Below are positions 13,501 through 19,500 of a stretch of 64,000 bases of DNA, piece by piece. Made by a program: the position numbers. Positions within the stretch are counted from its first letter, which is position 1, and each line of letters starts with the position of its first letter. Source of the DNA: Escherichia coli (GTDB taxonomy: Bacteria > Pseudomonadota > Gammaproteobacteria > Enterobacterales > Enterobacteriaceae); the NCBI RefSeq assembly GCF_017348835.2, contig NZ_CP071375.1; one strand, 5' to 3'.

Positions 13501-16500
13501 TCAGTGTAATACGTGAAATTGCTGAAAAGTTAATCAAATTTAACACCAAGAAAAATCAAGGTATTAGGAAGTTGCTCATAGCTAGTATACCAAGTCTTTT
13601 TGCCAGAAATTTTTCTGGATTGTCTACTTGCTAACCACGAGCGGCAAATCCAGTGTTGGTGTGATTTTTGTTTTACGATCGTAAATCAACACCTGATTTT
13701 CTGTTTTATGCCCGCTGAAAATTTGTTTGTCGCGACTGCTGCCTTCGTAATCTGAGATCCCCTTGGCTTTTATGTCGTGAAAATTGCACCCGAACGGAAC
13801 GCCAACTTTTTGCTCGGCTGCGCGTTTAGCCTGATTCCACCAGTTATTCAGCGTTTTAGCTATGACTTTCCCGCCTTTGGTTGTATTGATCACATATTCG
13901 CATGTACAGGAAGATACATTTCGGGCTAACTGGATCGCTGTACGTAATCGCGGTGACCATTCCTTGATTTGTTTGGTGCCGGTTTTGTTTTGCTCAATGT
14001 AGATCCCTTTATCCATAATATCCTGCCATTTCAACTCAAGCACATCACCGAGTCTTGCCGCACAGAGATAGGAAATCTCCATTGCAATGCGTAACTGTGG
14101 AATTGCTTCCGCATATATCGCCGCATACTGTTCATCGGTGATGTAAACAGTGCGGGCTTTAAGAGAGAATTTTCTGACTCCTTTGCATGGGTTATTCTTC
14201 ACATACCCACGCTCATATCCCCACCCGTATACTCGACTCAGGCTTGCCAGTTCATGATTTGCCTGGGTCTTGCTCTCAAGCCCTCGTTTATCCATGAAAA
14301 TTCTTACCTGCTCAGTTTTGACATTATCAGCAAGCACTTTTCCGAATACCATCAGCAACGCCTTCTGATGTTGTCGATAATCTTTTTGGGTTCGGGGGGC
14401 CAGTTCTGTAAATGCAGGGGAGTCCATAAACATGTGCCACAATTTAGCTACGGTCATTATGTTGTGGAGTTTTGCTTTTTCCAGTTCATAATTTTGCCAG
14501 ACTTTAGCTACGCTGGTTTTCCGCACTCTTCCTAGCCCTATACTTCTTGTACTTCCTTCGGGTTTCCACACGTAACTGTAACCATTCGATCTAACCCGCG
14601 GTGGCAGTACATTATCTTTTTTATTTTTTCTTGGTCTTCCCATTGTTCAGCGCCTCAAAATCGGGTTCAGCAGAAACCAGTTCAGATGTTTTTGGCATCG
14701 TTGTCAGACCGTGTGGAATATCCCTGCGGAGAACTATGGGTTCGTTTTTAGGGCCGATTACAAATGGGATGCCGTGCAGTCTTAACTGGTGTTGCTGTTT
14801 TGTGTATCGCTCGTATTTCGTGATCTCTTTAATCTCTGCTGGAGATAGAGTTAATTCGTACATGTGGTCACGTGCCTTTACAGCATGACCGCCGCCACTA
14901 TAGCTGGTGGGCGGCGATATGGGTTGAACATCAAAAATCAGCCTGACTCGGGAGCAGTTTTTGCCAGATGGCTGAAACGTATTTCGCCTGGTAACGTGCA
15001 TCGTTCAGAGCGTTATGGCGTTCACCTTCGAATGGAATAGTCGTTCTTGCGTCGAAATCCATCACCAGTCCCAGAGCAACCATCGTTCTTACATCGCGAT
15101 CATTGGTGTAACGCCATGGGCAGGGGATCCCCTGCCGTTCATATGAACGGCGTAAAATCACGTTGTCGAAAGTTGCACCGTTACCCCAGACCTGAACAAA
15201 AAATTCACCGGAGTTTTCGTCGATAAATTCCCGTAATTGCAGCAGTGCATCATCTAACGGGATTTCATCGGTAAGAATGGCGGATTGCGCTTCGCGTGAC
15301 TGTTTCAGCCACCACTTAATGGTGTCCCGATCAATGACTCCGCCAGCAGTTTCCAGATCGATAGTTTTGCTGAATTCTGGCCCCATCTCTCCGGTTTGCG
15401 GATCGAAAAATATTGCACCTATTGAGATAATCGGGGCATCAGGATTTTTTCCCATTGTTTCAAGGTCAATCATCAGATGGTGCCACAACCTGCTGGTGGA
15501 TGAGATTTCATGATGACCGTTCACTTTAATTAAGGGATTTGCTGTTTCGCCAGTTTTATTATCGCTGGCGTGATACTGATCGCTGCCAGTGTTCTCCTTG
15601 TGCAGATGTTCAGTGCCTTCCATTTCCTCCGGATCATTTTTCTGAGCTTCAGCCTGATTCTCTTCATCGAATGTTTCCAGGTAGGTTGCGTTCCCCATCA
15701 CCGCACCACAGTCAGGACAGTTGCCGCCACCGGTCTGACCGCATGCGGTGCAAACTTTTTCCAGTTCCTGTTGCACTGCTGGTTCTGGTTGTTGTTCTTC
15801 TGGCCCGTTTTGTTGCGTATCCGGGCTGTTTTGTTCCGCTTCTGGCTCATTTTGTTTCACGTTGGGCTGATTCTGGTCCTCAGCGTCGCGACTCTGGATC
15901 CCTTTCACCCATTTCGGATCATTCGGGTCGCTAATCCCTTCAACAAATTCACCACGTGATGCAGCAAGCAATTTATCGGCGTCAGGCTGGCTGATATTGG
16001 CTGCCTGCATAATTTTGTTTACTTCGTCAGCGGTAACTTTTACCGGCTCTGATTGTTCGGAATCTTCAGCGGTATCCACATTTTGCGGTAAGCCCGTGTA
16101 TGTGCCATTTTTTCGGGCAAAATATTCTTCTTTTGAGATTTCGGTACCGCCGGCAGCCAGCGCCTTGTCCAGACCAGAAAGTTTGTTTGCCCTGCCGTAT
16201 TTTTCCCCGCCCTTATCGGTAAAGACGAAATAAAATGGTCCTTCACGCTCTACAGATGGTTCAGCTTCCACTAGGATTTCATTTTTTTGAGTATCGGATT
16301 CTGCCGTCTCCACTGGAGCAGTTTGTGCTGCTGACGGCTGGAGAGCATCAGTAGAGCTCTGGTCTGTTTCTTCATGTTCAAACACGCCCTTTGTCGTCAG
16401 GTATTCACTGATATATTTGTTCAGTGCAACGGGATCTTTGTGAATATCGATCGGACGTTCGCGAACAAGGCCAAAAATAGTCTGACGGTCATAGCCAAGT

Positions 16501-19500
16501 GCTTCGGGCTGTTTGCGCATTGATGCTGAGATACGCTTCCAGTCTTCGCGATCCTTGTCGATAACCTCATTTGTCGCCCAGCGATGGATGGTACCGTCAA
16601 TGTTTCCTGCATCCACATCACCGGGCCAGAGGGCGCAGGCCAGTTCATTGTCGAGTGTTTTCCATGTCTGTTTGTATTCGCGGCGAATGGCAACAGTGAC
16701 AGCCCCGGTTTTTTCAGCAGCGTTTTCAGTGTTCTGTTGGTTGACTCTGGCGCGGGTGAGATCAACAACAGACGTGTATTTTCCGGTTTCCTTGCGTTCA
16801 CCTTCGCGACGTTTTTTCCAGATGCGCATCTCTGCCTGAATTTCAGGCCATTTAGCGCCAGGCTCACATTTATGCTTAACCCACCCGATGGCATGCAGTT
16901 TAAGTTCAGGATACATGGCGTTAACTTCTGGCATTTTCATCAACGCTTCAACGATATGTCCGCCGAATGTTGCCATGTCTTCCTGTAGTAATTCCTGTGC
17001 GCTAATCACCATATCAACGGTGATGTTTTCGCATGTGTCGAATTTAACCAGGACTGCGTTCTGTACTTCAGGGGACAGCTTGTCAAAATTGACGTTCATC
17101 GGATCGGATTCTGGTTCGACCGGTACAAAGGAAGCTGACTCCTCATCCCAGCGGTTTTCCTGCATATATTCGGTATCCCAGGAATCGAGGGCAGGGCGGG
17201 GTATGCCGGGTTTATCCTCGCAGACAATAAATTTATAAGCGCAGTCCTGAGCTGCCGGGAATTGCTCCAGAAATTGCCAGTGAAATTTTGCGCGTGCGCG
17301 ACGCTCATCACCGGCTTCAATGGCAGTGGCCACCGCAACAGCGCTATCTTCTTTTATGGCCTGTTCGTCAGGAATAGCAGCGCAAATAAAGATTTTACTC
17401 ATTGTGTTTTAACCTCATTACAGATTTAAGGGTGAACAAATCCCTGCCATTGCTGGCATATAAAAATGAAACCGGATATTAATTACGGTGCTGTTTTAAA
17501 GTCCTGCCGGTATTTCGTTATTATTAGTGTGAGTAGTTTTATCTACCGGATAACAGTTACCGGGAATTTTTTGTTCTGCTGCTGCAGCCATGCATTCTTT
17601 CATTGAACCGTATAAGCCAGTCACCAGCTCAAGAGATTCGCCGGAAACAAGATAAACTGTCAGAACGAGTGCAAATGTTGTATTCATTGTTTATATCCTT
17701 TTTGCAGCAGGTCCAGACGAGCCAGCATTGAAGGAATGCATACTTCATTTAACAGGTCCTGCTCGAGTTTTCTCTGCTTAATGGCGTCTTCAATAAATGT
17801 TTTGTCTCCAGTGATAACGCCAATTTCGAAACGAAGTTCAGACGTGCTGGCATTACATGATAACTTTTCCATTATCGCGTCCTCAACAATGAATTTTGTG
17901 ATGCGGTGCCTGGTGCCTCCAGGTGACGTTAACCAGTTAACAATTAACGCCGGATACAGAGCATTCTCGTTACTCAGCAAATGACCGCTTTACCGATTTA
18001 ACTGTTCCGCGTGCGCTGAGCCGCATTCACCGCATCACAAAATTCACTTTTAAAAAAGGGCGGCAGAGCAGTCACGGAGTAAAACTGATACCGCCAAATG
18101 TCACCAGAATATTGATAACAGAGGGCGTTGCAGCGGGGTTGTCACTTAAGCGTATGGTCAACCTGACAACCCGGTGTCCTCAACGGGGAAAGAATAACCC
18201 CGCCATACTTACCGCCGCGCCATTTCGCGGATTGCCACAACCGGAAGCGCACGGTCGAATTAAATTTAACGACGGCTCTAAGGGAGAAGGACTTCGCCGT
18301 GCACTTTCGTGTTATGCCCTGACTTTTCAGGGATATATCCTTTCAGTAAACTGTCAGTGCCGGATTCTTATCTGTGTCCGGCGCACGACCACACGTAGCA
18401 GCGTGTTGGTCTCCATTTTTAATTCAGCCCTTAATGGAGGATAAAATGCCAAACAAACCATGCCCTGCCTGTAACGCTCTTTCTGGCTTTTTAGAGAAGG
18501 GCGGTTATTACATTTTTAACTGTCCAGAACATGTTGAATTTCATATATCAAAACTTGACAGTATCATTACAAAGCCAAATCAGTATCAGTCTGATTTACT
18601 GAATAAAGAGTTAAACGCCGCCCGAGATTAAGGGCGTAGTGGCCCATTAAAAATATTGCAAAGACCAACTATTGTTGAACTGGATTAAACCAGTAATTCT
18701 CTATTGCTCTTATTGTTACCATCGGATGATTGCCGGGGGTTATTTTAAGTTCGGGAGGAAAAGGCTCTCCATCAGCAGCCATCATTGAGTATGTGAAATC
18801 CGCCGACGCAGTCCCTTTCATGATAATTCCGAATTTTTCAAGTAATGAGAGCAGTTCCGGTAATCCTGTGTCATCTGAATAACTTTCCTCATAGAAAGAA
18901 GCGATTGCCGCAGGAGATGACAGTTCTCGCTCTGCAATTTTTTTGTAGTTTTCCAGAGTTCTTTTTTTGAATACTTTTCCTCGACATGAAAACCCATCAC
19001 CGAGGCAATCCGCTTTGCAGTTTCTTCAGTATTCTGGTTGTTTGTTACCGAAACAGAGTACAATCCGGTAAACGCATCGCGCACATTACGAGCCATATTA
19101 TCAATGTATTTCTTCGTTGCAGATTCTAATTCAACTTCGTTCAGACGTTGGTGAAGTGCATGTGCTGCAATTTCCTGGATTTCTTTTAGTAAATCTTTAA
19201 ATTCCATCTTTAACTCCGTTAGTCGTTAGATTTTGCCGAACTGGAAAGCGCCTGTTTAAACTCACTGAAGCTGAGAGCTTCCTCGCCTTCGGCAAGGCCT
19301 TTGAACCGCCCCGGGTTTCCTGGAGAGTGTTTTATCTGTGAACTCAGGCTGCCAGATCATTATTTCCGATGGAAGCATAATAAGCTTTTTCTGCTTCTGC
19401 CGGAGGAATATGGCCCAGCCTTTCCAGCAATCGTCGATTGTTATACCAGTCCACCCACGTTAGTGTGGCCAGTTCCACTTCTGCACGGTTTTTCCAGCTC

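Follow-up and report, generated by a model that had tools for sequence, protein, structure and literature searches.

In a window of 64,000 nucleotides of Escherichia coli DNA (contig NZ_CP071375.1 of RefSeq assembly GCF_017348835.2; "the window" means this whole stretch), a lambdoid prophage carries an intact ydfE-type gene annotated as an exonuclease. The coding sequence (14931..17402, minus strand, as are all prophage features from the integrase to the repressor given below) encodes 823 amino acids plus a stop codon. We consider it probable that this 823-aa protein is a RecE-type scaffold equipped with a DexA-like DEDDh 3'-5' exonuclease, which would process DNA ends early in phage development. 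Accordingly, the PD-(D/E)XK 5'-3' exonuclease of RecE would have been exchanged for a DEDDh nuclease of the DexA/Rv2179c type, and the accompanying annealase gene lost. A RecE scaffold carrying a nuclease of opposite polarity without an annealase is not stated in the literature that we searched.

The gene itself is as the initial annotation had placed it: a single 823-aa frame, encoding several folded modules, runs from the ATG at 17402 to the stop at 14931-14933. A ribosome-binding site GAGG, read directly from the sequence, lies 10 nt 5' of the ATG (17413..17416). By simple arithmetic, an open frame of 823 codons would arise by chance with a probability of about (61/64)^823, or about 1e-17. 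The window is chromosomal, and between 13000 and 22500 it is 100% identical to E. coli strain PE164, in which the gene product is WP_000034468.1, labelled "exonuclease" and identical to the protein described here. The protein also matches PHROG 2082 at full length, and the precomputed annotation of the 100%-identical P0001 lists the Pfam families YdfE_N (PF27430), YdfE_C (PF27432) and Rv2179c-like. Given an identical RefSeq entry, a PHROG and Pfam families named after ydfE, the protein is already known as an object, catalogued and ordinary in its occurrence.

Judged by sequence and gene order, this is ydfE of the Qin prophage in its intact form: the Qin gene order matches, and identity to K-12 YdfE is 89% over the first 255 residues. 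The K-12 gene (pseudogene b1577), the namesake of YdfE_N and YdfE_C, occupies the same place after dicB and ydfD, but it is cut by IS2E after residue 255 and its exonuclease domain is gone. On the same comparison, the 255 residues are the stretch ahead of the IS2 insertion and the K-12 pseudogene is an IS2-truncated copy of a gene that is complete in the window.

A DEDDh exonuclease domain at the C-terminus

Residues 636-823 (14934..15497) form a DEDDh 3'-5' exonuclease domain of the Rv2179c-like or DexA-like kind, as identified by Pfam, motifs, AlphaFold and Foldseek. The Pfam family PF16473 (Rv2179c-like 3'-5' exoribonuclease) matches residues 641-813 with 221.8 bits against a cut-off of 27 (E 6.8e-66) and over the entire model (1-177 of 177). 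AlphaFold models residues 636-823 as an RNase H-like exonuclease fold, with a predicted local distance difference test score (pLDDT) of 80-96. When this domain is compared with the PDB using Foldseek, T4 DexA comes first (8KEL, E 5e-11), followed by RNase T, ERI-type nucleases, Cap18 and oligoribonuclease. In a search of the PDB with the family profile, DexA is the sole significant sequence match (E 3.5e-16). The DnaQ-like C-terminus proposed from the sequence is thus borne out both by the domain search and by the fold.

The catalytic motifs are intact. We assessed conservation of residues and modules in 121 close homologues. Exo I consists of D646 and E648 in MIDLETMG, aligned with D7 and E9 of DexA and kept in all 121. 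Exo II provides D746 in WGNGATFDNVIL (F-D746-NVIL), aligned with D119 of DexA and kept in 118 of the 121. Exo III has the H-x4-D spacing of the 'h' subtype (H796-NALN-D801), again kept in 121 of 121. Since all five catalytic residues (D646, E648, D746, H796 and D801) are present and conserved, any doubt that the DEDD signature might be lacking on alignment falls away.

A lambda Exo/YqaJ or RecE-type nuclease fold was ruled out, in agreement with the initial annotation. No PD-(D/E)XK or YqaJ match to the 823-aa protein was found in Pfam, PHROG or PDB searches, while K-12 RecE in the Pfam scan gives PF12684 at residues 615-850. The Pfam Exonuc_VIII model PF06630 does not match the 823-aa protein either. 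The RecE equivalog NF007259 of NCBIfam reaches 260 bits, far under its cut-off of 1269, and aligns well only at residues 453-625. Because the fold is DEDDh, the predicted polarity is opposite and the RecE equivalog is far under its cut-off, the label 'exodeoxyribonuclease VIII' in many phage records appears to be wrong on the enzymology. This mislabelling of the chemistry is not pointed out in the literature searched.

Among solved structures, T4 DexA (exodeoxyribonuclease A; PDB 8KEL/8KEN) is nearest to the C-terminal domain, with which it shares the DEDDh residues. It differs in being a standalone protein of 227 aa from a lytic phage, with extra loops and no RecE-type scaffold; identity is around 24%, and DexA W152 corresponds to T766. 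Rv2179c of Mycobacterium tuberculosis, the namesake of PF16473, is a bacterial exoribonuclease of small size that stands alone. The match of the C-terminal domain to the Pfam model is complete, but DexA is the closer characterised relative because Rv2179c was not recovered in the PDB sequence or fold searches. DexA has been described as a phage 3'-5' exonuclease with a preference for single-stranded DNA (PMC12153337). Read from these likenesses, the enzymology is likely that of a Mg-dependent 3'-5' exonuclease on single-stranded DNA or 3' tails.

Comparison with 120 close homologues shows two alleles of the DEDDh domain (14934-15497), which are about equally frequent and differ at D718/V, P715/S, D782/G and T766/Y. 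At several of these variable sites, the aligned DexA residue has been linked to oligomerisation or to the choice of substrate. One relative of 752 aa, P0267, combines a RecE-type N-terminus with a DEDD domain in which Exo I reads DLKT for DLET and Exo II reads FAN for FDN. With these two catalytic residues gone, P0267 is probably an inactive variant.

A RecE-family scaffold of folded modules and acidic linkers

Residues 1-625 are a RecE-family scaffold composed of four folded modules, acidic disordered linkers and a four-cysteine knuckle. By BLASTP, residues 262-625 align with residues 278-591 of RecE (E 4e-59). Identity to RecE is near 80% over residues 473-625, a stretch that includes the four-cysteine motif and the acidic tail.

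AlphaFold gives a mean pLDDT of 91 for residues 1-345, which comprise three sub-domains. The first is a confidently modelled alpha/beta sub-domain of residues 1-100 (17103..17402), part of Pfam YdfE_N. The second, also confident, is a helical sub-domain of residues 105-205 (16788..17090), collinear with RecE residues ~120-225 in a profile-profile alignment. A second helical sub-domain, residues 245-340 (16383..16670), is common to RecE 278-360 and was delimited by BLASTP, the module table, AlphaFold and the profile alignment. The fourth module is a beta-beta-alpha-beta-alpha mini-domain of residues 386-435 (16098..16247) with the motif ERxGPFY...GRANK...EIxxEEYxARK. It is modelled at a pLDDT of 88-96 (about 92) and is also found in relatives that have other C-terminal cassettes.

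Beyond the mini-domain, a conserved helical motif LLAAxRGEFVxGISDPNDPKWV, common to RecE, spans residues 458-497 (15912..16031) with 97% mean identity among close homologues; AlphaFold models it at lower confidence (residues 458-482). A disordered low-complexity linker rich in Q, N, E and P follows at residues 498-545 (15768..15911; 61% mean identity among close homologues). Residues 546-570 (15693..15767) hold a putative zinc knuckle CxxC-x7-CxxC, recognised by sequence and conservation, and an acidic disordered linker occupies residues 571-635 (15498..15692). The homology to RecE stops at residue 625 (RecE 591), just ahead of the nuclease cassette.

The long acidic, low-complexity centre reported earlier is evident. 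Residues 346-640 have an isoelectric point of 4.3 and a net charge of -33, and the lowest sequence entropy falls at 511-560, within a Q/N/E/P-rich stretch (~505-560). Residues 346-385, 440-455, 500-545 and 568-635 have a pLDDT below 50. The CxxC...CxxC motif, reported as a zinc ribbon, is likewise present, in the form of a short putative knuckle. Its four cysteines (C551-T-A-C554 and C562-P-D-C565) are kept in 119-121 of the 121 close homologues and present in K-12 RecE, and AlphaFold places them in a short hairpin (pLDDT ~65) within the disordered linker, not in a large ribbon domain. The knuckle is missing from three relatives (P0123, P0137 and P0238).

Exchange of C-terminal cassettes on a shared scaffold

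RecE (exonuclease VIII of the Rac prophage) shares with the 823-aa protein a homologous, collinear N-terminal and central scaffold, the same CxxC-x7-CxxC knuckle and acidic linker, and the same early-left operon position near xis and int. It differs at the end of the protein and in the next gene: RecE terminates in a PD-(D/E)XK 5'-3' double-stranded DNA exonuclease (PF12684) and is followed by recT, whereas the 823-aa protein terminates in a DEDDh 3'-5' domain and has no annealase partner.

A search of residues 1-640 against 1.84 billion representative proteins returned 248 clusters only, so the YdfE/RecE scaffold is a narrow family. We mapped modules on the long members of these scaffold clusters and found the two N-termini and the C-terminal cassettes in exchange. 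The YdfE-type N-terminus is joined to DEDDh in the 823-aa protein, P0121 and P0123, and to PD-(D/E)XK in P0129 and P0192. The RecE-type N-terminus is joined to PD-(D/E)XK in RecE and to DEDDh in P0131, P0137 and P0238. Either N-terminus can also carry a third cassette (21 clusters, for example P0134) or a fourth (6 clusters, for example P0125).

The neighbouring gene changes with the cassette. The gene that follows P0129, a PD-(D/E)XK version, encodes a RecT-family protein (Pfam E 2e-36). P0131, a natural chimera of a RecE N-terminus and a DEDDh C-terminus of the YdfE type, lies in a Rac-type operon (sieB, kilR, ydaE) that runs directly into xis and int with no recT. DEDDh versions lead straight into xis and int.

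These natural swaps split the RecE N-terminal scaffold from its nuclease and thereby offer a route to the role of the ~600-residue N-terminal part of RecE. They also bear on why full-length RecE improves linear-linear recombineering. The main value of the 823-aa protein and its relatives lies in this natural domain-swap series for the RecE N-terminal region.

A wider reading, which we regard as unlikely, is that the shared ~600 N-terminal residues act as a general adaptor that brings interchangeable DNA-end enzymes to one common target, located at DNA ends of phage or host. The cassettes would then be a PD-(D/E)XK 5'-3' nuclease, a DEDDh 3'-5' nuclease, a possible Rad52-like annealase and a fourth of no assigned kind, the DEDDh version being an annealase-independent device for end processing or protection. 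If so, the DEDDh version could blunt or remove 3' tails and evade RecBCD/Chi or end-sensing defence, and in a large share of E. coli prophages it would stand in for Exo-Bet-Gam.

The third cassette is ~270 aa long, has the motif FGPxGxGWG...KKSLTDAxKKALSxLGFSADV and is found in P0134, P0130, P0133 and 18 other clusters. Examples are in loci L009 and L010 (4001-6370) and in phage ZF40, as gp07 (locus L013, 2645-4810). Its best Pfam match is Rad52_Rad22, below threshold (E 0.009), and a Sipho_Gp157 gene follows it; a profile search of the PDB gave no match. Standalone homologues in Pseudomonas phage F116 (p19) and in Vibrio phages are labelled 'exonuclease' or 'DNA repair protein'. Going by the Rad52_Rad22 similarity, the third cassette may be an annealase rather than a nuclease. 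The fourth cassette (P0125, P0244, P0219, P0247, P0268 and P0269) corresponds to PHROG 26058 and has no Pfam match. Finally, in P0195 (703 aa) a K-12-like RecE from residue 1 to ~548 passes straight into RecT, of which the C-terminal two thirds are present, as if a deletion had fused recE and recT.

DNA rather than RNA as the probable substrate

Standalone relatives of the DEDDh domain in temperate phages show the company that it keeps. In Klebsiella phage phiKp_30 (P22-like), gp060 is a standalone copy, 54% identical, that comes directly after a Rad52-family annealase (Pfam E 5e-26) and a single-stranded DNA-binding protein (SSB) and ahead of a weakly Abc2-like gene. A standalone copy of 190 aa in PhiR40_1, 59% identical, lies in the ea region of the early-left operon. 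Like residues 640-823, to which they are 54-59% identical, both have all catalytic residues and are encoded in early-left or recombination regions; unlike the 823-aa protein, they have no scaffold and keep a Trp at the position of DexA W152. Among more distant standalone copies, the one in RcRios neighbours a DNA polymerase, the one in Bas82 is flanked by a helicase and a primase, and the one in Vibrio K266 directly precedes an integrase.

The four-gene module of phiKp_30 (locus L006, 2619-4854) consists of the Rad52-family annealase, the SSB, the standalone DEDDh protein and a weak Abc2-like match (E 0.003, under the Pfam cut-off). Its genes are annotated just as hypothetical proteins or SSB.

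We take the substrate to be DNA because DexA is the closest characterised relative, because the domain is fused to a DNA-recombination scaffold and because its standalone relatives have DNA-metabolism neighbourhoods. The protein could instead be an exoribonuclease that trims or degrades RNA 3' ends in early phage development, such as those of transcripts from host or phage or of the dicBF small RNAs. We give this a small chance of being right. PF16473 is named after the exoribonuclease Rv2179c, structures of RNase T, ERI-family nucleases and oligoribonuclease come after DexA in the fold search, and many copies are named '3'-5' exoribonuclease' by NCBI. However, the sole significant sequence relative in the PDB is a DNA exonuclease, and many of the RNase T structures that matched show this enzyme acting on DNA as well. 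The scaffold to which the domain is fused is that of a DNA recombination nuclease. Among the sister cassettes, the identifiable one is the PD-(D/E)XK DNA exonuclease of RecE, and the commonest other one weakly resembles the Rad52 family of DNA annealases, below threshold. Standalone relatives, too, sit in DNA recombination and replication modules.

A proposed role in processing 3' ends

Based on the gene order, we propose that the gene would be transcribed together with dicF, dicB and ydfD after loss of the repressor. The C-terminal domain would then remove nucleotides from free 3'-OH ends by two-metal catalysis, as expected from the intact catalytic residues and the DexA-like fold. Its substrate would most likely be single-stranded DNA or 3' tails, the preference for DNA following from DexA and the gene neighbourhoods. 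The scaffold shared with RecE would bring the nuclease to the site or partner that RecE uses at DNA ends, as the modular exchange suggests. The outcome would be trimming or removal of 3' ends in phage recombination and replication, with host or other phage functions in place of a dedicated annealase. Candidate purposes are the trimming of 3' flaps in recombination intermediates, the blunting of ends and the removal of 3' tails. If the DEDDh version does act on DNA ends without an annealase, it would represent a third kind of early recombination module in lambdoid phages, beside Red and RecET.

Several points weigh against this proposal. A role in favour of recombination is not self-evident, because a 3'-5' exonuclease would destroy the 3' tails used in recombination. 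The function of the RecE N-terminal region is not known according to a review (PMC11611040), so that delivery by the scaffold would be an analogy and not a mechanism. The collinearity of the N-terminal halves (hhalign with the profile of the N-terminal 345 residues, 13-345 against RecE 10-376, probability 100%, E 1e-56) is partly circular because the common module of residues 245-340 is in both alignments and some few sequences in them are mosaic. Expression of the exonuclease in this strain is uncertain because an IS3-family element separates the promoter region on the repressor side from the gene. In open-access PubMed Central and bioRxiv literature, we found no study of activity, substrate or phenotype for the 823-aa protein or its full-length relatives.

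The likeness to DexA also invites a reading as a prophage-encoded defence nuclease. For superinfection exclusion, the protein would digest the 5-hydroxymethylcytosine (5hmC) DNA of incoming T-even phages and spare the host DNA, like EcD in HREX. T4 DexA is the closest solved relative, and the gene is borne by prophages and present in ~65% of complete E. coli genomes. In addition, protection against T4 by EcD, a DexA homologue of E. coli, is reported in a 2025 paper, which proposes digestion of 5hmC DNA as the HREX strategy and finds that Escherichia contributes the largest share of bacterial DexA homologues (PMC12153337). We nevertheless judge this defence role improbable.

EcD is a different protein: its cloning primers encode the termini MIDTET... 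and ...TIPETY, compared with ...LMIDLETMG... and ...SQADF here, and identity with the published defence protein was ruled out on these termini. DexA W152 is reported as needed for recognition of 5hmC (PMC12153337), but its position is T766 here and Y, T or C in the 121 close homologues; at ~24% identity the register of this alignment could slip by a residue or two, and W763 lies three residues upstream. EcD has an Ala at the tetramer-forming Asp (D90 in DexA), the loss of which is said to make EcD phage-specific (PMC12153337). Here the equivalent of D90 is kept as D718, in an alignment of low identity, while the other common allele has Val at 718. Moreover, the gene is the last one of a repressed early lytic operon and not a moron expressed in the lysogen. 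PADLOC gave just a weak, generic match to a Cas-associated DEDDh nuclease, and assignment to a known defence system was ruled out.

Distribution and conservation

The gene is among the most widespread prophage genes of E. coli: some two thirds of complete genomes have it, often more than once. With coverage of at least 80% of the gene, copies were found in 3,533 of 5,426 complete E. coli genomes (~65%), with a median of two matching places per genome. The close relatives of the protein number more than 8,000, and those copies that were sampled have annotations as intact genes. The gene is also present in the same arrangement in Tritos and mEp460, which are complete, morphogenesis-competent, plaque-forming lambdoid phages. 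Mean identity among close homologues is 92-97% in the folded modules versus 61-83% in the linkers.

This pattern bears on whether the protein has a selected function at all. Illegitimate recombination between recE-like genes and a DEDD gene could have left a decaying mosaic, and lambdoid mosaicism would fit residues 473-625, which are so close to RecE while their flanks are unrelated or distant. K-12, furthermore, has a truncated copy only, and P0267 has lost two catalytic residues. Yet copies covering at least 80% of the gene persist in 3,533 complete genomes, annotated as intact where sampled, and in plaque-forming phages. Of 121 homologues, 118-121 keep the catalytic and cysteine residues, conservation is higher in the folded modules than in the linkers, and both halves are modelled by AlphaFold with high confidence. 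A functionless mosaic is thus hardly credible.

Operon and prophage setting

The 823-aa gene is the last gene of a Qin-type early-left operon (dicBF or pL type) of a lambdoid prophage. On the minus strand, the order is a cI-like repressor (21600-22001), a RelE/ParE toxin-antitoxin pair, a DUF1391 gene, an IS3-family insertion, a ydfB remnant, DicF, dicB, ydfD, the 823-aa gene, a DUF4224 xis-like gene, the integrase and the chromosomal yccA. The K-12 Qin order is dicA, ydfA, ydfB, ydfC, dicF, dicB, ydfD, ydfE, intQ. The succession of DicF, dicB, ydfD, the 823-aa gene, xis and int is common to the window, K-12 Qin and phage Tritos.

Directly upstream, the ydfD homologue (DUF1482, 17496..17687) and dicB (17684..17872), both found by annotation and Pfam, belong to the same operon. 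The DicF antisense small RNA (18058..18109; Rfam RF00039, 77 bits, E 5e-16) lies upstream of dicB, as in K-12 Qin and Tritos, and is the mark of an early-left operon of the dicBF type. Downstream are the xis-like gene with its DUF4224 domain (14621..14863, annotation and Pfam) and the annotated integrase (13624-14643). Beside the cI-like repressor gene, which is known from its annotation, are the RelE/ParE-family toxin (21094-21381) and, upstream of it, a small partner gene (21381-21572).

As described initially, no bet or gam homologue follows the gene; the xis-like gene and int are downstream. Searches of the early genes of the window gave neither an annealase nor a Gam family, and there is no annealase between the exonuclease gene and int. 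No annealase is annotated in the whole genome of phage Tritos either. The lambda Exo module differs accordingly, in that the 823-aa gene has neither the YqaJ/PD-(D/E)XK fold nor an adjacent bet-like annealase or gam.

An early gene at the position of lambda exo-bet-gam, with no Gam or Abc present, could be an anti-defence or host-takeover factor. It would destroy immunity-linked nucleic acids (for example retron msDNA or free 3'-ended DNA) or the 3' tails made by RecBCD, in replacement of Gam. The standalone homologue in phiKp_30 adjoins the Abc2-like (anti-RecBCD) gene, although this link is a single match, weak and under the Pfam cut-off (E 0.003). We found no direct support for such a factor and no similarity to known anti-defence proteins, and we rate it as quite improbable.

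The IS3-family element (IS1203/IS629-like, 19344-20557, with an ALIL frameshift pseudoknot, RF01497, at 20160-20276) sits between the DUF1391 gene and the ydfB remnant and so upstream of the whole stretch from DicF to the exonuclease gene; the related genomes, which match at 86% coverage, have no insertion there. In this strain, the insertion may uncouple DicF, dicB, ydfD and the exonuclease gene from the repressor-controlled promoter. Consensus scans for a promoter or terminator of the exonuclease gene's own gave no more sites than shuffled sequence.

At the integrase end, ARAGORN found no tRNA gene between yccA and int (window 12500-14700). In K-12, serT adjoins yccA, so the attachment site of the prophage may be elsewhere, or the tRNA may be at the other prophage end. 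Finally, two more transposase-type open reading frames (PHROG 157) are located in the replication/nin region (window 28413-30687), which suggests that the prophage is partly degraded.

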